From Candidatus Iainarchaeum sp. (GTDB taxonomy: Archaea; Iainarchaeota; Iainarchaeia; Iainarchaeales; DTGL01), in the NCBI GenBank assembly GCA_038736825.1, contig JAVYME010000043.1:1-7949 (forward strand): DNA of 7,949 nt, in the 5' to 3' direction. The position numbers were made by a program, and so were the translations under genes. Below, piece by piece: positions 1 through 7,949 of the stretch (positions within the stretch are counted from its first letter, which is position 1; every line of letters starts with the position of its first letter). The notes under the pieces were generated by a model that made no database searches, had not been told where the DNA came from, and was given only the letters and a program-made list of their open reading frames with translations.

Positions 1-1832
1 AAAAAATATTGCTTGCTCATGCTCCAACCGGTCTTGGAAAAACCGCTGCAGTGTTATGCCCTTCCCTGACTTTTGCCTTGGAGGAAGGCAAAACCGTTTT
101 TTTCCTCACTCCAAAGATTTCCCAGCACGAAATTGCAGTGCAACTAGTGAAAGACTTGAACAAAAAGTTTGGCTTGCAAATTAAGGGCACTGACTTGGTT
201 GGAAGGAAATTCATGTGCTCTGATCCATATCTCTCTGAAGCAGACTCTGGTTCTTTTTATGAATTGTGCAAAAAGCGCAGGGAAAAAGAGGAATGCGAGT
301 TTTTTGCAAACATTGTCGGTTTTGATTCAAGGCAAAGGGAGATTGCAAGGCTTTACCAGGGCGAACTCAAAAGCAAGCATTCTGGAATATGGTCGCATTT
401 GGAGTTAAAGGAATGGTGTGAAAAGGCCTGCAATGGAAAAGGGTTTTGCGCTTACGAGTCAGCAATGTTGTTGGCAAGGGATTCAAGCATTATAATTGCA
501 GACTATTATCACTTGTTCAATCCCAGCATTCAATCAGTTATCCTTCAAAAAGCGAAGAAAAAACTGGAAAATTCCATTGTGGTTGTCGATGAAGCGCACA
601 ATCTTCCAGAAAGGGTGAGGGCTCTCTTGAGCAGCACTGTTTCGGTTTTTTCAATTGAAAAGGCAATGGAGGAATTAGAACGGCTTGGGCGAGAAGAGCA
701 CATTGAATCCCTTAAAGAGATAAGAAAGGCAGTAAAGGGCATTGCAAGGGAAAAACTTTCACAGAAAAACGAAGCAATTGTTTCAGAGGAAGCCCTTTCA
801 AAAAAAATAGAATCCGTTGGCGAAATCGAGGATATTGCAATCGAGTTCAGGGAACTGGGAGCAGAGTTTGTACAGTCTTTTCCCCAAGGGCGCTCCCACT
901 TAATATTGATTGCAAATTTTTTGGAAAAATGGCGCGAGCGAGAGCCTTCCTTTGTCCGCATTGTGCGAAAAAAGGAGAAAGGGGTTTCGCTTCAAGTGAA
1001 AGCACTGGATCCAGCAATTGTTTCAAGAAAGGTTTTTGAGGAAGCGCATTCCGCTGTTTTGATGAGTGGCACTCTATTGCCTGCAAAAATGTATGCAGAC
1101 CTTTTAGGAATTCCAAGTGAAAGGGCGGTAATGAAGGAATATTCTTCGCCTTTTCCCAAGGAAAACAAGCTTTCACTTGTTGTTCCTTCAGTGACTACAA
1201 AGTTTTCAGAGCGCAATCCAAGAGAGTTTGAAAAAATTGCTGAAATTGTTTCCAGCATTTCAAACAATATTCCGGGAAACAGTGCAGTGTTTTTTCCTTC
1301 CTTTGCAGTGCTTGAAGCAATTGCGCCCCTATTAGAGGGACGCCTTTCAAGGCCTGTGTTGAAGCAGAATGCTGAAATGGGTTCTTTTGAAAAGGCAGAG
1401 CTTTTGAAGAGGTTCAGGCAGCAAGGAAAGGGTTTTGGGGCAGTGCTTTTGGCAGTGGCTGCTGGTTCTTTTGCTGAAGGAATTGATTATTTGGGCGAGC
1501 AATTGCTGGGAGCAATAATTGTCGGCATTCCCTTGAATGAAATGGATTTGGAAACCCAGTGCCTTATAGATTATTATCAGGAAAAGTTTGGCTCTGGATG
1601 GCATTATGGTTATCTCTATCCAGCGGTTGCTCGTGCAATTCAGGCTTCAGGAAGGGTTATAAGGGATCGCTCTGACAGGGGAGTGGTGGTTTTTTTGGAC
1701 AAAAGGTATACTTGGAATAATTACAAAAAGTGTTTTCCAAGGGATTTTGAGGGAATTGTGACAGAGAATCCTGCAAAAACAGTGGCAAGGTTTTGGCAGG
1801 AGCGCTTTGAATTCAAGCCGGTTGTCGCTTGA
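1..1832 (+). CDS. xpd: XPD/Rad3-family (DinG-like) superfamily-2 DNA helicase with Fe-S cluster domain; 5' end cut by the window edge
   Basis: The reading frame is open back to nt 3 (..KI-LLAHAPTGLGKTAA), so the TTG at 9 is probably not the real start. Walker A is APTGLGKT (nt ~21-44) and the DEAH box is VVVDEAHNL (DEAH = 588-599). Clustered cysteines lie between motifs I and II (FMCSD, ELCKK, EECEF, WCEKACNGKGFCAYE), as expected for the 4Fe-4S domain. Also present: ADYYHLF, SGTL, GSFAEGIDY (motif V) and QASGRVIRD (motif VI). Stop TGA at 1830-1832. Confidence 0.9.
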   Translation, partial: KILLAHAPTGLGKTAAVLCPSLTFALEEGKTVFFLTPKISQHEIAVQLVKDLNKKFGLQIKGTDLVGRKFMCSDPYLSEADSGSFYELCKKRREKEECEFFANIVGFDSRQREIARLYQGELKSKHSGIWSHLELKEWCEKACNGKGFCAYESAMLLARDSSIIIADYYHLFNPSIQSVILQKAKKKLENSIVVVDEAHNLPERVRALLSSTVSVFSIEKAMEELERLGREEHIESLKEIRKAVKGIAREKLSQKNEAIVSEEALSKKIESVGEIEDIAIEFRELGAEFVQSFPQGRSHLILIANFLEKWREREPSFVRIVRKKEKGVSLQVKALDPAIVSRKVFEEAHSAVLMSGTLLPAKMYADLLGIPSERAVMKEYSSPFPKENKLSLVVPSVTTKFSERNPREFEKIAEIVSSISNNIPGNSAVFFPSFAVLEAIAPLLEGRLSRPVLKQNAEMGSFEKAELLKRFRQQGKGFGAVLLAVAAGSFAEGIDYLGEQLLGAIIVGIPLNEMDLETQCLIDYYQEKFGSGWHYGYLYPAVARAIQASGRVIRDRSDRGVVVFLDKRYTWNNYKKCFPRDFEGIVTENPAKTVARFWQERFEFKPVVA

Positions 1833-1841
1833 ACAATTGTT

Positions 1842-2105
1842 TCAGGTTTGTGATTGTTTTAGGCTTCTAATCATGTATATTGCGAATGCTATTGCAATCA
1901 AGGCTAGTGCAATTATTGCTCCAAAGTTTCCAGCATCCCCCAATCCAAAAAAGCCCGTGGGTTGTTCAAGGCAGTCCATGGGACAGTTTTGTGCGCTTTC
2001 ATTTTCACTGCAATAATTGTCTCCACAGGTTTCAATTGTTTGCGCGAATGCTCCCAGTGCAAGCAATAGAGTGAGGGAAAGCATTGTTGTTTTCCAAAAA
2101 ACCAT
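1842..2105 (-). CDS. small (87 aa) surface protein: signal peptide, 4-Cys mini-domain and C-terminal transmembrane anchor
   Basis: N-terminal MVFWKTTMLSLTLLLALGAFA|QT looks like a cleavable signal peptide (AFA). CGDNYCSENESAQNCPMDC (nt 1971-2027) follows. Then come PTGFFGLGDAGNF, a hydrophobic helix GAIIALALIAIAFAIYMI and a basic tail RSLKQSQT. A GAGGG SD-like element lies ~8 nt upstream of the ATG on the minus strand. The competing ORFs in other frames (1807..2016, 1880..2074, 1913..2140) lack such features. Confidence 0.65.
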   Translation of the reverse strand: MVFWKTTMLSLTLLLALGAFAQTIETCGDNYCSENESAQNCPMDCLEQPTGFFGLGDAGNFGAIIALALIAIAFAIYMIRSLKQSQT

Positions 2106-2192: not shown

Positions 2193-3116
2193 TTAAACTT
2201 TTTTTTTGTTTGCCAGAAACCAGTAAGCGCTTTCAGCGGCAATTGCGCCCTGTCCTGCTGCAACTATTGCTTGCGCAAATGTTCCAGTAATGTCGCCTGC
2301 TGCAAAAACGCCTTCAATGCTTGTGTTCATTTGCATGCCTGTTTCAATATAGCCTTTTTCTGAAAGCCTGCAACCAAGCATTTTTGCAATCCCGTTTTCA
2401 GGCAGCAATCCAATGTATACAAAAACGCCGTCAACTGCAATCTCTTTTTCTTTTCCGCTAACCCTGTCCCTGTATTTCAAGCCATTGGCTTTTTCGCTTC
2501 CAGTTATTTCAAAAACCTCAGCGTTTAATATTGTTTGCACTTTTTTTTCCTTTAATTTTTCTTCATAAATTTTATCACATTTCAGTTTGTCTCCGAATTC
2601 CAGCAAGAAAACCTTTTTGCAAATGCCTGCAAGGAACAATGCGTTCATTGCCCCAGAATTGCCTCCACCGATTACTGCAACTGTTTTTTCCCTGTAAAGC
2701 GGGCCATCACAAGTGGCACAATAATGGATTCCTTTTCCTTCAAGTTTTTCTGCGTTTTTTGCTTTTAGTTTTTTGTGGGTTGCACCTGAAGCAATGATTA
2801 TTGCTTTTGCCAGAATTTTTTCTCCATTGCCTGTTTCAAGCTCAAAGCCGTTCAATGTTTTTTTTGCTTTTTTTATTTCAATTCCTTCCAGTATTTTTCC
2901 CCCGATTCCTTCAAAGTGTTCTTGCATTTTTTGCGCCAATTCAAACCCTTTTATGGATTTAATGCCGGGATAGTTTTCAACCAGCACTGAATCAACAATG
3001 TTGCCGCCTGCAATTTTTTTTTCAAAAACCAGCACTTTCAATCCTTTTCTCAAAGCATAAATGCCTGCAGTTATTCCAGCAGGGCCTGCTCCTATTATTG
3101 CAATGTCTGTTTCCAT
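2193..3116 (-). CDS. trxB: thioredoxin-disulfide reductase, low-molecular-weight TrxR family (atypical pyridine-nucleotide site)
   Basis: FAD-binding DIAIIGAGPAG at the N-terminus. Redox-active CATC in HYCATCDG (codons at nt 2709-2720, minus strand). Second dinucleotide fold VAVIGGGNSG, and C-terminal GVFAAGD FAD motif. The 307-aa length fits the family. AGGTG SD sits 5 nt upstream of the ATG (AAAGGTGCAAAAATG on the minus strand). Confidence 0.93.
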   Translation of the reverse strand: METDIAIIGAGPAGITAGIYALRKGLKVLVFEKKIAGGNIVDSVLVENYPGIKSIKGFELAQKMQEHFEGIGGKILEGIEIKKAKKTLNGFELETGNGEKILAKAIIIASGATHKKLKAKNAEKLEGKGIHYCATCDGPLYREKTVAVIGGGNSGAMNALFLAGICKKVFLLEFGDKLKCDKIYEEKLKEKKVQTILNAEVFEITGSEKANGLKYRDRVSGKEKEIAVDGVFVYIGLLPENGIAKMLGCRLSEKGYIETGMQMNTSIEGVFAAGDITGTFAQAIVAAGQGAIAAESAYWFLANKKKV

Positions 3117-3313
3117 TTTTGCACCTTTTAATAATATTAAAGAAAACTTTAATAATGGCTAATTTTATTACAAAAGGCAGTGTGAAAGGTTTATATATTG
3201 GGAAACCATTAATATATGCTGAAATTTTGCCTTTTGGCTTCAAAAACAGCTTAAAGGAATGAATAAAAGGAGTTAGTGTATAAATTAATTCGCTCTTATG
3301 AAGGGGTGATTTT
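3117..3313. promoter_or_regulatory. divergent AT-rich intergenic region with candidate archaeal-type promoters for trxB (-) and the four-gene cluster (+)
   Basis: On the + strand, purine-rich GAAAGG (BRE-like) sits directly upstream of TTTATATA (3190-3197), a near-consensus archaeal TATA box. A second TATAAATTAA lies at ~3280-3289. On the minus strand, TAATAAAATTA (complement of ~3160-3170) lies ~45-55 nt upstream of the trxB ATG. No transcription start data, so assignment is tentative. Confidence 0.4.
3303..3310 (+). promoter_or_regulatory. Shine-Dalgarno-like site (GGGGTGAT) for the TTG-initiated gene at 3314
   Basis: AAGGGGTGAT, then a 3-nt spacer, then TTG at 3314. It is complementary to the conserved 16S 3' tail (anti-SD ...GGAUCACCUCC). 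Confidence 0.55.
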
Positions 3314-3889
3314 TTGGATAAGCGCTGGTTTAACCTTATAATTTTGACTGCAATAGTTTTGGCAGGAATTATTGCTTATTTTTTCTTTTTTCAAGCGCCA
3401 TCTTTCTCGCAAAGGCTTGAAGCAATGAAAGCCTCTTGGGTGAAAGCTGGCTTGGAAGCAAAACCCCTTCACTTGTCCTATGACAGGCTAAACCGCCTTT
3501 CACAAAAAGAATTATCCGATTTAAAGGCAGGCTTGGTTCAATTCACTGAATCTGAAAAAAATTCTGCTGCAAGAGAATTAGGCGAAGCATATGTTTCCCT
3601 TATAGACATCAGCATTTACAGGCAAAAAATGCTTGAAGTGCAGGAAGAGATTTCAAAAGCCGAAAACCCTTGCACTGTACTGCCAAAATACGATTTGTTG
3701 ACAGAATACAAGGAATCGCTTTTGGCTTCAACAGAAGAATATTTATCCAAAGTGGATTCCTTTGTTTCAAGCAATCCAGAGGCTGCAAGAGAAGCGCAAA
3801 TACAAGCAGGAAGCGGTGCTGAAGAACTAGCCTCCTCGGTTGCCAGGCATAAAACCCTTGTAGCACAATTAAAGGAGGCATGCAAATGA
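3314..3889 (+). CDS. N-terminally membrane-anchored, predominantly helical protein of unknown function (module 1, small subunit; paralog of 6113..6682)
   Basis: TTG start with SD. Single N-terminal hydrophobic helix WFNLIILTAIVLAGIIAYFFFF followed by QAPSF. The rest is charged and Ala/Leu/Glu/Lys-rich. It is collinear with the 6113..6682 product: FFQAPSF at residues 25-31 in both, C120 vs C119 in a C..LP.Y..L block, and C190 vs C188 near the C-terminus. Confidence 0.8.
   Translation: MDKRWFNLIILTAIVLAGIIAYFFFFQAPSFSQRLEAMKASWVKAGLEAKPLHLSYDRLNRLSQKELSDLKAGLVQFTESEKNSAARELGEAYVSLIDISIYRQKMLEVQEEISKAENPCTVLPKYDLLTEYKESLLASTEEYLSKVDSFVSSNPEAAREAQIQAGSGAEELASSVARHKTLVAQLKEACK
3874..3878 (+). promoter_or_regulatory. 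Shine-Dalgarno GGAGG embedded in the last codons of the upstream gene, serving the ATG at 3886
   Basis: AAG GAG GCA TGC AAA TGA. GGAGG ends 7 nt before ATG 3886-3888, which overlaps the stop TGA 3887-3889 (ATGA). Confidence 0.7.
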
Positions 3890-6087
3890 ACACCAAAAGC
3901 CTTCTCGCAATCCTTTTCCTTTCCCTGCTTTTCTCTTCAACAAACGCTTTTGTTTTGAGAACCACAGCCGGCTATCAAATCTTGGACAGAGATGCTCTTT
4001 ACAATGATTCAGTGCAACGTGATGATACAAGACTGGCGCAAGGAACGCTTTTCGCAAAAGCAGGCACAAAACTTTACACTTTGAATCCAAGGCATAAAGC
4101 AGACGGAAAAGCCTTACTGGAAACAACCCCAAAAGTTTTAGTGAATAAAAGCCTTTTGGGAATAAGCGGCACAGGACAGTATTCCTTTGAATTGGATGCA
4201 ATAGAACCAACAACCTATTTGCGCGGTCCAGCTGACCAAATAAGAGGCAGGTGCTCTGACCGCTGTGACGGGCCAAAAGTAAGCCTTACAGTAAAAGATG
4301 ACGGGGGTTACACTCAAGTGGCAGCAAGCAATTTCATCGAGGAAGGCAGAGAAATGATTGCCGGCGATTACAAGTACAAAATCACCAAAATTATTGTTCC
4401 AGAATACAAGGAAACCTGGCTTAAGGTTGGAGGCGACAACCAAACATGGTATTTGGTTTTAGGGCAAACCGGCGTAATGTCTGGACTAACAGAGGCTACA
4501 CCAAAAGACATTATAGTGGAGTTTTGCGTTGCCAAAAGGAATGGCGCTGGCTGGAGCAATTGCTATTATGACAATTCTGGTTCACTAACAGGAGAACTGA
4601 CAATAGGGGAAAGCACTCCAGGCACTGGAATGCAACCGCCTGGCTCGCCAACAGAAATCGGGCAACAAATAGAAGAAGCAACACAAACCGCAGCAGAACA
4701 AGCTGAAGCAGCACAAGGCTCAACACAAGTCACAAGTGGAAAAATTCCCAGCGAAGATGAAGAGCTTGCCAAGTGCACTGCAGACCTTCAAAAGAGTGAA
4801 ACCCTGCTTGTTGCAAAAACAAGGTTCAAGTACGATAGGGCAATAGGTTATCCGCCAGGTGAAACAGGATGGAATGAATTTGTAGCTGATGAAATCCAAG
4901 AAAAAAAGAGTTTCAAGATTGACATGACGGGAGTTGGTTATAGAGATGCTGGCAAAGGGCTTTACGAGTTCTATCTTCAAGGCTTCCATCCAGAACTAAA
5001 AAAATTTGATGGAACTATATCCAAAAAACCAGCATTTGCAACATATGGAACAAGGGATGGCGCGCAAATTTTATGCGGGCATTTCATTGGATTGAACGAA
5101 GAAATGAGTTGCAGTCCAAGAGACGAAATAAAGCCACAGGATGTTATTTACAAGATTTACAAATTCGAAGGGCCTTTTTTCGAACAACCAAGTGAAGGAA
5201 AAAGAGAAATTTTAATGAAAGGGCCACACTGTTATGATGTATGGGCTTATTATATGGTTAAATTCAGGATGGATACAACGCCAAGTGGAGGCCACGAGTG
5301 GTGGATGAAAACAGTTGAAGAAGTGCAAAACTATGCTGAAAGCAAGAAAAGAGGCTATAATCTCATTGTAAATGTTGTTGAAGAGATTGAATACAATTCT
5401 CAACCGATTTCAGGCGCAAAAGTGGTTGCAACAACCACTATTGAAGGAGAAAGTGTTAGGATTGAAGCCAATACAGGTGAGGACGGAAAAGCCAAGCTTG
5501 TGGTTCCAATAAATGCAACAATAACGGTTGTTGCAAGCAAAACAAATTATGTGGATTCAAGCATTATTGTACCACCATTTTCCAGTACAAAAGAGGTAAC
5601 AATTGCCCTAAAAAGGAATCTTTACAATTTAAAGGTTGCCTTTGCAAGGGATGACTTTTGGACTTTGTACTACAGGTATGCACCACAACACCATGGTGAT
5701 CCAACAACACCGGGCGTTAACACTGCAGACAAAGCGTTCCTTGACTCGCATGTTCCAACAAAGGAACACTCAGACTATGTTTACAGTGTTGCAGACAAGT
5801 TTTTGGCTTTAAAAACAAAGCCTTGCGATGATCCTTCTGGAGAAACAATTCCAAGCAAGGTTAGAACCGATTTTCAGCACCTAACAATCAAGGACACCCG
5901 CCAAGGCCATGAAAATCACGATGTAAGGCTTTACAATGTCCTTGAATTTGAAAACTTGAAACTGGACAGCTATTATTATGCTTGTTATTCTCGCACAATT
6001 GACGGAGTGAAAAAAACAAGAGAGATAAAATGGCATATCAAAATTAATGGAGTGCTTGAAGAGCCAGATCCGCCTAGAGATATTTGA
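3886..6087 (+). CDS. large secreted protein of unknown function (module 1, large subunit) with an internal carboxypeptidase-regulatory-like beta-sandwich segment
   Basis: The longest ORF begins at ATG 3880, but that start is only 1 nt from the GGAGG. ATG 3886 has a 7-nt spacer and an ATGA overlap, so it is preferred. Signal peptide MNTKSLLAILFLSLLFSSTNA|FV. Ten cysteines in the mature part (an even number, compatible with disulfides). A Pro/Gly/Thr/Gln/Glu/Ala-rich linker (GESTPGTGMQPPGSPTEIGQQIEEATQTAAEQAEAAQGSTQ, nt ~4609-4730) separates the N- and C-terminal regions. Residues NLIVNVVEE..QPISGAKVVA..TGEDGKAKLVVP..ATITVVASKTNYVD..VTIALKR (nt ~5359-5616) fit the CarboxypepD_reg / Ig-like pattern. 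No TM anchor at the C-terminus. Confidence 0.85.
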   Translation: MNTKSLLAILFLSLLFSSTNAFVLRTTAGYQILDRDALYNDSVQRDDTRLAQGTLFAKAGTKLYTLNPRHKADGKALLETTPKVLVNKSLLGISGTGQYSFELDAIEPTTYLRGPADQIRGRCSDRCDGPKVSLTVKDDGGYTQVAASNFIEEGREMIAGDYKYKITKIIVPEYKETWLKVGGDNQTWYLVLGQTGVMSGLTEATPKDIIVEFCVAKRNGAGWSNCYYDNSGSLTGELTIGESTPGTGMQPPGSPTEIGQQIEEATQTAAEQAEAAQGSTQVTSGKIPSEDEELAKCTADLQKSETLLVAKTRFKYDRAIGYPPGETGWNEFVADEIQEKKSFKIDMTGVGYRDAGKGLYEFYLQGFHPELKKFDGTISKKPAFATYGTRDGAQILCGHFIGLNEEMSCSPRDEIKPQDVIYKIYKFEGPFFEQPSEGKREILMKGPHCYDVWAYYMVKFRMDTTPSGGHEWWMKTVEEVQNYAESKKRGYNLIVNVVEEIEYNSQPISGAKVVATTTIEGESVRIEANTGEDGKAKLVVPINATITVVASKTNYVDSSIIVPPFSSTKEVTIALKRNLYNLKVAFARDDFWTLYYRYAPQHHGDPTTPGVNTADKAFLDSHVPTKEHSDYVYSVADKFLALKTKPCDDPSGETIPSKVRTDFQHLTIKDTRQGHENHDVRLYNVLEFENLKLDSYYYACYSRTIDGVKKTREIKWHIKINGVLEEPDPPRDI

Positions 6088-6112
6088 TTTTGGTTGAATG
6101 GAGCGTGATTGA

Positions 6113-6682
6113 ATGAAAAAAAACCAAAAAATCGCTTTAATCGCAATAATCCTTTTGGTTGTTATAATCGCGGTTTACCTGCTTTTCTTTCAAGCGCCAT
6201 CCTTTGAAAAAGAATACGAGCGCATGAGCCTTGCATGGAAAAACAATGGGTTGAAAGAGGAAAGATTGCACGCTTCAGAGACTGTTTTTTCCCTTGATTC
6301 AGAGAAAATCGAGGACATTCGCTCCGAAATATCCTCCTTTTCTTCTTCTCCGAATCCCGCAATCAAGGACCTTTCAACAACCTATCTTTTGTTCCTTGAA
6401 AGCGCAAAAATAGCCTCCGAGATTTCCAGTATGAGCGAAACCCTTGCTGGTTCTCAGCAAGGCCTATGCGAAAGCCTTCCAGCTTACGAACGCCTTGGCA
6501 AAAAATTTTCAGAACTTGAAGAAAAAAAGGAAGCCTACCTTAAAGCCACAAACGCTTTTGTTTCAAAATATCCAAAGGAAGCTGAATCCATTTCCCTGAA
6601 AGCAAACACTGCCGGTTTGCAGGGAGCTTCTTCAAGCAAATTCGTTGAACTGCTTGAAGTCGCCAAGGAGGTGTGCTCATGA
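6113..6682 (+). CDS. N-terminally membrane-anchored helical protein of unknown function (module 2, small subunit; paralog of 3314..3889)
   Basis: ATG start preceded by GGAGCGTGAT (6100-6109). TM helix IALIAIILLVVIIAVYLLFF followed by QAPSF. Shares the W..(x)GL....LH.S, C.(x)LP.Y..L, YL......FVS..P..A and KE.C-terminus blocks with the 3314..3889 product. Confidence 0.85.
   Translation: MKKNQKIALIAIILLVVIIAVYLLFFQAPSFEKEYERMSLAWKNNGLKEERLHASETVFSLDSEKIEDIRSEISSFSSSPNPAIKDLSTTYLLFLESAKIASEISSMSETLAGSQQGLCESLPAYERLGKKFSELEEKKEAYLKATNAFVSKYPKEAESISLKANTAGLQGASSSKFVELLEVAKEVCS
6667..6671 (+). promoter_or_regulatory. Shine-Dalgarno GGAGG(TG) embedded in the last codons of the upstream gene, serving the ATG at 6679
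   Basis: AAG GAG GTG TGC TCA TGA. GGAGG ends 7 nt before ATG 6679-6681, which overlaps the stop TGA 6680-6682. The geometry is the same as at 3874-3889. Confidence 0.7.
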
Positions 6683-7949
6683 AAAAAGCCTTTTTTGCAA
6701 TAATCGCAATCATGTTGCTGGCATTCACAGGACAGGCATTTGCGTACGACAAGCTGGATGCACTTGTAGACCAAGGAAGGATAAAAATAAACATACTAAT
6801 TGATCCAACCCCTTGGGATCAAAAGGTTTCATATCAGTGGAACAATGTTGTGCTTCAAACACCAGCGCAAATAAACGTGAACGATCCTGCTGTTTCAGCC
6901 ACGGGTTCTTTTTCATTTTACAGGGCATCACATTCTGTTGCACGTAAAACCACGCCAGACCGCTCTGAACTTAACCCAAGGCACAATATTGGCTTAGAAT
7001 ATTATTCGCTCAAATATGAAATACAGCCAAATTTTGTTAGAGTTGAGCCAGTGCCAGGCAGAAGCCAAGACACCCAATTCATTTACAAATTCACTATATT
7101 AAAAGGGGTTGGCGCAAACCTTACCCAATGCCATTCAACTGGCGAATTCAAGCTTTTACTTCCAGACACTCCAACTGAAGAGGACGCTCCTGCTAGAGGA
7201 ACAGAAGACGAAATGTTGCCAGGCTCAAGGGGATATAAGTATGTGACAGTTGATGCCTTAAGCCAGTGCGGCATAAGATTCCAAGTTTACAGAACCCATT
7301 CTTGGTTTGGTGACCATGTTTGGTTTCTAAGGTTTGATTTTTCAAGAAATGAAATAATAAACTATTTTTTGCCACAACTCTTGCAAAACACCGCTGATGC
7401 CTCGCTAAAACAATCCATTACTGAAATAATCGGAGCACAATTACCACCAACTAAGACTTGCACTCCAAAAACTTGTGCTGAAATGGGTTGGGAGTGCGGT
7501 TCTGGTGTTGAGGACAGGTGCAATACAACAATTCAATGCCAAGCTTGCCCGAGTGGCAAGACTTGCAACAATTCAATCCATAAATGTGAGACATTCAGCC
7601 CACCCTGTGTTCCAAAAACCTGTTCAGAGCTTGGTTGGCAGTGTGGCACTGGTGATGATGGTTGCGGTGGAACCTTGAATTGCGGAGATTGCCCGACAGG
7701 CCAAAAATGCAATATTGGAACCCACAAATGTTGCACTCCAAAAACTTGTGCTGAAATGGGTTGGGAGTGCGGTTCCGGCATTGAGTCTGGATGCAATAAT
7801 ACAATTAATTGCGGTAATTGCACTGGTGGCAAAACATGTAATACTGAAACTCACAAATGCGTAAGCACTTGTGTTCCAAAAACCTGTTCAGAGCTTGGTT
7901 GGCAGTGTGGCACTGGTGATGATGGTTGCGGTGGAACCTTGAATTGCGG
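6679..7949 (+). CDS. secreted protein (module 2, large subunit) with a unique N-terminal domain and a C-terminal array of 8-Cys repeats; 3' end runs off the window
   Basis: Not in the supplied ORF track because it has no stop in the window. I translated frame 1 from 6679 by hand and found no stop through 7949 (423 full codons). Signal peptide MKKAFFAIIAIMLLAFTGQAFA|YDK. A ~235-aa N-terminal region is followed from residue ~261 by repeated modules CxPKTCxExGWxCGxG....C...(I/L)xCxxCxxGxxCxxxxHKC. Confidence 0.85.
   Translation, partial: MKKAFFAIIAIMLLAFTGQAFAYDKLDALVDQGRIKINILIDPTPWDQKVSYQWNNVVLQTPAQINVNDPAVSATGSFSFYRASHSVARKTTPDRSELNPRHNIGLEYYSLKYEIQPNFVRVEPVPGRSQDTQFIYKFTILKGVGANLTQCHSTGEFKLLLPDTPTEEDAPARGTEDEMLPGSRGYKYVTVDALSQCGIRFQVYRTHSWFGDHVWFLRFDFSRNEIINYFLPQLLQNTADASLKQSITEIIGAQLPPTKTCTPKTCAEMGWECGSGVEDRCNTTIQCQACPSGKTCNNSIHKCETFSPPCVPKTCSELGWQCGTGDDGCGGTLNCGDCPTGQKCNIGTHKCCTPKTCAEMGWECGSGIESGCNNTINCGNCTGGKTCNTETHKCVSTCVPKTCSELGWQCGTGDDGCGGTLNC
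7459..7949 (+). repeat. in-frame tandem coding repeat: alternating A/B types of an 8-cysteine ~42-49-aa module (A1 7459-7605, B1 7606-7731, A2 7732-7869, B2 7870->7949)
   Basis: 7606-7685 and 7870-7949 are identical over all 80 nt (offset 264 nt). 7458-7502 and 7731-7775 are identical over 45 nt (offset 273 nt) and then diverge. Each module has eight Cys at conserved spacing. Confidence 0.92.

Follow-up and report, generated by a model that had tools for sequence, protein, structure and literature searches.

A family of small membrane-anchored archaeal proteins translationally coupled to anchorless secreted proteins: a possible surface dock

How is a large exported protein that lacks a membrane anchor kept at the surface of an archaeal cell? 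The question is raised by a gene cluster of Candidatus Iainarchaeum sp. (contig JAVYME010000043.1 of a metagenome-assembled genome; its entire 7,949 bp are referred to here as the window). DPANN archaea are ultrasmall and mostly uncultivated. Their biology is thought to hinge on contacts at the cell surface, yet most of their envelope proteins are orphans whose mode of attachment is an open question. Positions 3314-7949 carry four co-directional genes, A1-B1-A2-B2, in which a gene for a small membrane-anchored protein (A) is twice followed by a gene for a large secreted protein (B), with junctions of -4, +25 and -4 nucleotides (nt). The answer preferred here, though only tentatively, is that A acts as a dock holding its anchorless secreted partner on the cell.

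The layout had been described in an earlier note made from the letters alone, and several of its observations stand. The junctions are as claimed, the small proteins are paralogous (BLASTP E = 6e-15, 27% identity over 170 amino acids (aa); the 15 identities among 31 positions of the FFQAPSF...LH.S block were recounted), and their cysteines are correctly placed at 120/190 in A1 and 119/188 in A2. The link between A and B also extends well beyond the window. Among 18 unfused A genes, 17 lie directly upstream of an orphan gene with a signal peptide, mostly through ATGA or GTGA, so that the synteny put forward for checking is found in ten lineages (the window, L001, L002, L003, L005, L007, L013, L014, L015 and L017). 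This pairing persists among A proteins that are just 15-30% identical and B partners that are mutually unrelated. Seventeen A-to-B junctions comprise ten overlaps of 4 nt (ATGA/GTGA), two overlaps of 1 nt, four gaps of 0-1 nt and one ambiguous case. A narrower genome scan for related loci returned only the L001 contig, and two metagenome scans returned nothing.

At both A/B junctions of the window, the start codon of B overlaps the stop codon of A (ATG 3886-3888 with TGA 3887-3889 for A1/B1, and ATG 6679-6681 with TGA 6680-6682 for A2/B2). The B1 open reading frame holds an alternative start, ATG 3880; ATG 3886 is taken as the start because GGAGG lies 7 nt upstream of it, at ideal spacing, and because the orthologs start at ATGA/GTGA. 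The Shine-Dalgarno (SD) sequence of B lies inside the C-terminal K-E-V/A-C codons of A, which makes the end of A dual-coding. The codons of the C-terminal peptide K-E-V/A-C-(K) read AAGGAGGTGTGCAA(A/G)TGA, a stretch that holds the SD sequence and the start of the next gene (3870-3889 and 6665-6682 in the window; L001-L017), and this design recurs at orthologous and distant A/B junctions. Conservation of the C-terminus of A at the protein level may be partly imposed by the translation signal. SD-like sequences also precede the A genes, GGGGTGA at 3303-3309, 4 nt upstream of the TTG start of A1, and GGAGCGTGAT at 6100-6109, upstream of A2.

By the libraries and literature searched, A is a previously undescribed protein family. 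The sequence of A1 matches NCBI protein QXK06_05725 (Ca. Diapherotrites archaeon) at 100% identity, and a word-indexed search yielded only seven close relatives. When 1.84 billion representatives were searched exhaustively with an HMMER profile, 205 clusters (50% identity) passed E<=1e-3, of which 107 also passed E<=1e-10. Their lengths fall almost without exception within 186-210 aa, typically ~190-205 aa, and the family hidden Markov model (HMM) scores are 1.4e-53 for A1 and 1.2e-53 for A2. The comparison with characterised families suggested in the earlier note returned none in Pfam, NCBIfam, PADLOC, PHROGs, the PDB by profile, or the PDB and BFVD by Foldseek. Only scattered single chance Pfam matches were obtained with 80 members (E<=0.01), and nothing meaningful in NCBIfam, PADLOC or PHROGs, where A1 has one weak match to a family of unknown function (PHROGs, E 0.0035). 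Matches of A2 to FliF, TraP and IcmG (NCBIfam E 3e-4 to 0.04, far below the cut-offs) lie in the transmembrane (TM) region and were judged compositional. The family profile found nothing significant among PDB sequences (best E 0.011, a diterpene synthase), Foldseek found no significant neighbour of the A1 model in the PDB (best E 0.36, TM-score <=0.35) or BFVD, and literature searches found no description of the family.

The members of this family are bitopic, with a short positive cytoplasmic N-terminus, an uncleaved signal anchor and a compact helical ectodomain of ~160 aa. The anchor of A1 spans residues 6-26 (nt 3329-3391) and is its sole hydrophobic segment; that of A2 spans aa 7-26 (nt 6131-6190). 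In the 150 representatives used for the conservation counts, the mean net charge is +2.5 before the TM segment and -1.05 after it, a bias that indicates an N-in/C-out topology. The charge bias and the single N-terminal TM segment together predict that the ectodomain lies outside the cell. A proline at +1 after 'FQA', read from the sequence, argues against cleavage of the signal peptide. Tethering to the outer face of the membrane appears to be conserved, since in two members a lipobox-like N-terminus replaces the TM helix. Neither A1 (MDKRWFNL...) nor A2 (MKKNQKIAL...) has the G/A at -1 of a class III (type IV pilin-like) signal peptide, and a loose pattern of this class occurs in only 9 of the 150 members. 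The AlphaFold2 model of A1, built from an eight-sequence alignment, contains eight helices, with a predicted local distance difference test score (pLDDT) of 91.4 and a predicted TM-score (pTM) of 0.79.

The only residues invariant throughout the family are two cysteines, C120 (150/150) and C190 (144/144 sequences covering the position), encoded at nt 3671-3673 and 3881-3883 in A1; their counterparts in A2, C119 and C188, are encoded at nt 6467-6469 and 6674-6676. Exactly two cysteines are present in 115 of 128 members of normal length, the first at the start of the longest helix and the second 0-5 residues from the C-terminus. High conservation is also seen at F31, W42, G46 and Y93 and in the motif F...(Y/F/H)P.EA.

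The split between A1 and A2 is ancient, since A1 orthologs are 49-66% identical to one another and only 24-29% identical to A2. A2-type orthologs are 41-48% identical, and the two types form separate clades that both include the distant genome L007. The order A1-B1-A2-B2 is kept in the close relatives L001, L002, L003 and L017, and by these comparisons the four genes form a conserved operon and did not arise by a recent tandem duplication. The earlier proposal that a two-gene module was duplicated in tandem holds for the A gene only, given that the B genes are non-homologous and the A1/A2 split is old.

The large proteins had been described as unrelated, with cleavable signal peptides and no anchor. 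BLASTP detects no homology between B1 and B2 (best E 0.52), and profile-profile comparison (hhalign) aligns only their signal peptides (probability 6.6%). A hidden A-binding domain common to both was also sought with hhalign and HMM searches and rejected, the signal peptide alone being shared. Both N-termini show the n-h-c pattern of a Sec-type signal peptide with small residues at -3/-1 (SSTNA before F in B1, GQAFA before Y in B2), a call made by heuristic inspection of these features. The absence of an anchor is borne out for B1, which has no later hydrophobic 19-mer; for B2 the same is true of the available portion, up to the end of the contig. Searches of Pfam, NCBIfam, PADLOC and PHROGs gave nothing for either protein beyond a weak match of B1 to CarboxypepD_reg (Pfam PF13620, E 1e-3).

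B1 has only five homologs in 5.8 billion proteins. It contains 10 cysteines and is acidic, with an isoelectric point of ~5.5. Its AlphaFold2 model, based on five sequences, is poor (pLDDT 56.5), only aa 490-728 being confident, and Foldseek finds transthyretin-like matches to it (TMt 0.5-0.76). The middle domain recurs in L007_B1 and L001_410. The linker between the N-terminal and middle domains carries a 15-nt tandem repeat (2.9 copies, 4675-4717). In the L001 ortholog (L001:8429-11293, 954 aa), the ~230-aa N-terminal domain is duplicated internally; the B1 HMM matches aa 1-251 and then again from aa 321.

B2 has no Pfam match, and a word search with its N-terminal domain returned the query alone. 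This domain is 29% identical to those of L001 B2 (E 4e-28) and L002 B2 (E 5e-23) and also matches L017 B2; its ~250 aa are kept, while the central and C-terminal regions differ between genomes. In the window, it is followed by repeats of the pattern C.PKTC.E.GW.CG.G...C...L.CG.C..G..C....HKC, with a period of ~264-273 nt, and the partial protein contains 31 cysteines. The L017 protein has a single MopE-type motif and a C-terminal domain in common with L001. The assembly broke inside the repeat array, as the last 80 nt of the contig are an exact copy of an earlier segment (Table 1).

Cysteine counts are even in 16 of 19 mature B-type proteins (one-sided binomial P ~0.002), which is consistent with disulfide-bonded exported proteins. 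Many secreted proteins of these clusters share a ~25-aa C-terminal Cys motif with no TM segment after it (...GCDPCQSVVGCLACLDKALAEQTLK, ...CDDCSSIMECLACMDHRLVVGISK, ...GECTSIVECLARIDKKLVEGVFE; L001:13336-15817, L014:10465-14358, L015:8736-9473, L013:9455-10462, L007:10582-12069 and L006:2123-2614), which could be a sorting or attachment signal. B1 of the window is without this motif, and the C-terminus of B2 lies beyond the end of the contig.

The combination of conserved small and divergent large subunits noticed earlier extends to the relatives, in which A is consistently more conserved than its partner. Identities are 52-66% for A1 against 37-48% for B1, and 43-48% for A2 against 31-35% for the N-terminal domain of B2; by these values, B evolves faster than A.

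Two natural fusions, P0054 and P0092, indicate that an A domain and a cluster cargo can share one polypeptide, with both outside the cell. P0054 (1,753 aa) is encoded on an 83-kb archaeal contig with ribosomal-protein genes. It consists of a TM segment, an A domain (aa 43-207), an acidic linker, a second TM segment, a K/R-rich segment (64 K+R vs 32 D+E) that is presumably cytoplasmic, a hydrophobic segment and a ~1,100-aa ectodomain. The last 675 aa of this ectodomain share homology (E 4e-20) with the N-terminal region of the giant protein encoded after A2-B2 in L007. The impression by eye of a B2-like N-terminal domain within P0054 was unsupported (E 0.47). In P0092 (561 aa), the A domain is followed by a hydrophobic segment and extra domains.

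From these data, we infer that A and B are made 1:1 at one place on the membrane and act as a pair on its outer face. The ribosome ending A would re-initiate on B, yielding equal amounts of the two proteins, and both would pass through the same or neighbouring translocons. The ectodomain of A would capture the emerging B, probably through contact with the better-conserved N-terminal domain of B. It would then hold B against the membrane's outer face, the variable parts, such as the Cys-rich repeats and extra domains, being directed outward. The two cysteines of A, assumed to pair, would probably form a disulfide that staples its ectodomain. A1-B1 and A2-B2 would be old pairs that are not interchangeable. 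Docking is preferred because it explains an anchorless B, the conserved tethering of A and the maintained stoichiometric coupling.

Several points weigh against docking. The case for it is drawn from gene order, coupling and fusions only. The B partners are non-homologous across the family, so that the interface would have been re-invented for each pair or would depend on a generic feature. A solo A gene occurs in L009/L010, beside DUF116, DUF2666 and PAP2 genes, and the clusters of L001, L013 and L015 encode more secreted proteins than A proteins. The cargo-like part of P0054 appears to carry its own TM segment yet keeps the A domain, which suggests that A does more than tether. Finally, a transient chaperone role fits the same facts about as well.

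According to this last explanation, which is unlikely but the best placed of the rivals, A would be a private membrane-tethered steric chaperone or foldase that receives B at the translocon, aids its folding or assembly and releases it, B ending up free or attached to something else. The N-terminal anchor and all-helical ectodomain, tightly coupled 1:1 to an exported partner family-wide, speak for it as they do for docking, and they recall the lipase-specific foldase Lif, which has an N-terminal anchor, an all-alpha periplasmic part and one operon with its lipase. The chaperone better explains the A domain kept in P0054, it accords with A accompanying unrelated cargos, and the top, non-significant Foldseek neighbours of A are helical-repeat scaffolds such as BamD and 14-3-3. 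However, the Lif motif Rx2FDY(F/C)L(S/T)A is found in 0 of 150 A members, and A resembles Lif, YfgM and PpiD neither in sequence nor in fold. In addition, catalytic helpers are usually less abundant than their substrates, whereas the stop/start overlap suggests equal amounts, and B1 has no other means of attachment.

An improbable alternative is that the pairs build a two-component S-layer resembling SlaB/SlaA, with A as its membrane stalk and B as its lattice subunit. B1 is anchorless and acidic with beta-sandwich domains, and S-layer anchoring is open in at least one DPANN lineage, Micrarchaeota, for which a preprint suggests that a second TM protein might be the stalk (doi 10.1101/2021.04.28.441871). 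The best Foldseek E value of the B1 model is to the SlaB chain 8qox_B (E 1.1e-4), but this match is meaningless, with TM-scores of 0.12/0.19, a root-mean-square deviation of 21.7 A and a poor model. The earlier note had pictured A as a stalk or receptor in an anchor-plus-canopy system. The A1 model is instead predicted to be a compact bundle of ~160 aa on the membrane, not a coiled coil, and a lattice-like B was not upheld either, given the SlaB scores, the quality of the B1 model and N-glycosylation sequons that show no enrichment in B-type proteins. The occurrence of two or three pairs per genome, the narrow B families, the repeat expansions and the giants with lytic-transglycosylase (SLT) domains fit variable surface proteins of adhesin or enzyme type better than a single abundant lattice protein. 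What survives of the surface-system idea is the link between a small helical protein, anchored at its N-terminus, and a secreted partner that varies, without the stalk and the canopy.

It is still less probable that A works outside the cytoplasm as a thiol-disulfide relay or oxidase, introducing disulfides into its Cys-rich partner or editing them. This explanation would account for a family whose only invariant residues are two cysteines and for Cys-rich partners with mostly even cysteine counts. Five lineages have a thioredoxin-reductase-like (TrxR) gene nearby, and the solo A has DUF116 and a CxxCxxCC protein encoded beside it. However, CxxC occurs in 0 of 150 A members, and the two cysteines, one opening a helix and the other ~70 residues away at the C-terminus, are placed as in a typical structural staple. 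Some partners, L005_B and L015_245, have only two cysteines, and TrxR is cytoplasmic, with no membrane electron carrier of the DsbD, CcdA or VKOR type encoded in any cluster. Pfam matches to thioredoxin, DsbB, VKOR or Erv were found neither for the window proteins nor for 80 A members. The TrxR gene adjoins the first A gene divergently in the five lineages, including L001, L005, L007/L008 and L017, where the A proteins are ~25-66% identical, and it is absent from the L013, L014 and L015 clusters. This adjacency may reflect either synteny of the lineage or a functional link through redox chemistry, and TrxR is a conserved neighbour of the A-B system, at most a candidate part of it.

The weakest explanation, that A and B are independent and merely packed into a compact operon of a small genome, is very improbable. 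The gene density of DPANN genomes and the one solo A gene speak for it, but the order of A before an exported protein is kept with stop/start overlap in 17 of 18 cases despite 15-30% identity of A and unrelated B proteins, and two natural fusions exist.

The contigs compared carry A homologs drawn from across the family. L001 and L017 keep the TrxR neighbour, and L001 also the helicase and 87-aa genes of the window; in L017 a third pair lies further upstream, in which A0 (194 aa) precedes a signal-peptide protein of 325 aa. In L007/L008, a divergent TrxR gene precedes A-B(720)-A-B(495) and then a 1,903-aa protein with an SLT domain, and in L005 it precedes A-B(498). More distant A proteins, 15-26% identical to those of the window, are found in L013 (A-475-335-521), L014 (A-407-A'-1297, the last with SLT) and L015 (A-626-245-278). 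All the proteins downstream of A have signal-peptide-like N-termini, and their known domains are limited to weak Ig/fn3-like or MopE-type Cys motifs. One of them (L013:8028-9455) starts with MPSSFMGQRG followed by IAPAIIAAIVGAVIVVG, which resembles a class III (type IV pilin-like) signal peptide, not a Sec one.

Giant secreted proteins of 1,297-1,903 aa with an SLT domain are encoded at L007:12080-17791, L014:10465-14358 and L011:10001-15262, and that of L014 is directly coupled to an A gene. Archaea are without peptidoglycan, and an SLT domain is odd there; these giants may have a bearing on interactions with bacteria. In a separate setting, the solo A gene of L009 (region L009:233-7748) lies ~2 kb downstream of an integrase gene and of ~15 small orphan genes on the opposite strand, and these surroundings in L009/L010 may be an integrated element.

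The features of the window are collected in Table 1. The TrxR gene is transcribed divergently from the A1 operon, and the intergenic region between them probably holds the operon promoter. The 87-aa protein has a signal peptide, a four-Cys motif (CGDNYC...CPMDC), the sequence QPTGFFGLGDAGN, a C-terminal TM segment and a basic tail. It shares 56% identity (E 3e-33) with an 83-aa gene product at the equivalent position in L001, and its tail resembles a PGF-CTERM-like sorting signal, but it has no such Pfam match. No tRNA and no Rfam family were found within the window.

Table 1. Genes, protein domains and sites in the window (amino acid ranges refer to the protein named).
Feature	Position (nt)	Strand	Range (aa)	Remarks
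XPD/Rad3-type helicase	9-1832	+		5' end probably cut
87-aa exported Cys-containing protein	1842-2105	-		C-terminal TM
Thioredoxin-reductase-like flavoprotein (TrxR, trxB)	2193-3116	-		307 aa; Pfam Pyr_redox_2 E 1.6e-49
Divergent intergenic region trxB/A1	3117-3313	.		AT-rich; GC 0.356 for 3001-3500
A1	3314-3889	+		TTG start, 191 aa
A1/B1 coupling site	3874-3889	+		SD GGAGG 3874-3878 within A1 K-E-A-C codons
B1	3886-6087	+		ATG start at 3886, 733 aa
B1 signal peptide	3886-3948		1-21	
B1 N-terminal domain			to ~230	Q/A/E-rich linker after
B1 conserved middle domain			~340-490	
B1 transthyretin/CarboxypepD_reg-like beta-sandwich	5362-5616		493-577	
B1 C-terminal domain			to 728	
A2	6113-6682	+		189 aa
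A2/B2 coupling site	6667-6682	+		SD GGAGGTG 6667-6673 within A2 K-E-V-C codons
B2, partial	6679->7949	+		423 codons, no stop; contig end cuts gene
B2 signal peptide			1-22	
B2 conserved N-terminal domain	6745-7449		to ~257	
B2 Cys-rich repeats	7459-7949		from 261	at least 3.5 repeats of ~44-48 aa each
Terminal 80 nt of contig	7870-7949	+		100% identical to 7606-7685 (repeat search)

The signal anchor, the helical ectodomain, the two invariant cysteines and the ATGA-coupled downstream signal-peptide gene make up a diagnostic signature, which flags candidate surface cargos in metagenomes, including cargos that lack any homolog. Should A prove to be a dock or a private chaperone, it would offer a handle to express and purify these proteins, it would help to predict which orphan proteins are surface-exposed, and it would exemplify translational coupling through a dual-coding site that has been maintained over deep divergence. 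A broader proposal, rather unlikely as it stands, is that the family is a modular, DPANN-specific membrane dock, each copy holding one anchorless, fast-evolving surface protein, with cassettes added, fused or swapped at one chromosomal hot spot. If true, its cargos would include Cys-rich repeat proteins and giant proteins bearing lytic transglycosylase domains. It would represent an unrecognised route by which ultrasmall archaea build and diversify their cell surface and host-interaction machinery, and it could explain the attachment of DPANN envelope proteins that have no anchor.

The A family, its fold, its Cys pair, the dual-coding coupling site and the modular association with unrelated cargos are not described in the libraries or literature searched. 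In bacteria, YfgM (with PpiD) meets nascent exported proteins at the SecYEG translocon. Like A, it is a protein of ~200 aa, N-terminally anchored with an all-helical periplasmic part; however, it is a general, not a client-specific, factor with a tetratricopeptide-repeat-like fold, is not known to be coupled to a client gene, and gave no sequence or structure match to A. LemA (PF04011) is similar in size, with an N-terminal TM segment, a helical extracytoplasmic domain and a frequent pairing with a downstream gene. Unlike A, it is not known to have a conserved Cys pair, and the LemA Pfam model matches neither the window proteins (E<=1) nor 80 A members (E<=0.01).

The SlaB/SlaA two-component S-layer of Sulfolobales (PDB 8QOX; reportedly described by Veith et al. 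in 2009) follows the same logic, with a large anchorless exported protein held by a small co-transcribed membrane-anchored partner. There is no homology with A or B, and the Foldseek search of the PDB with the A1 model, in a library including 8qox_B, did not retrieve SlaB. SlaB has a cleaved signal peptide, beta-sandwiches, a long coiled coil and a C-terminal TM segment, in contrast to the N-terminal anchor and compact helical bundle of A. The gene order also differs, slaA preceding slaB, whereas here A precedes B.

The Lif/LipA system of Pseudomonas and Burkholderia (PDB 2ES4) resembles the A-B pairs in design only, through an N-terminal TM anchor, an all-alpha extracytoplasmic domain and an operon shared with a dedicated secreted partner. 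Lif, of ~340 aa, is an open helical scaffold that wraps its client, while A has a compact domain of ~160 aa; lif lies downstream of its client gene and A upstream; and Lif is not known to have a conserved Cys pair, while A has one. The general design of a small membrane-anchored partner with a large secreted protein has precedents in both SlaB/SlaA and Lif/LipA.

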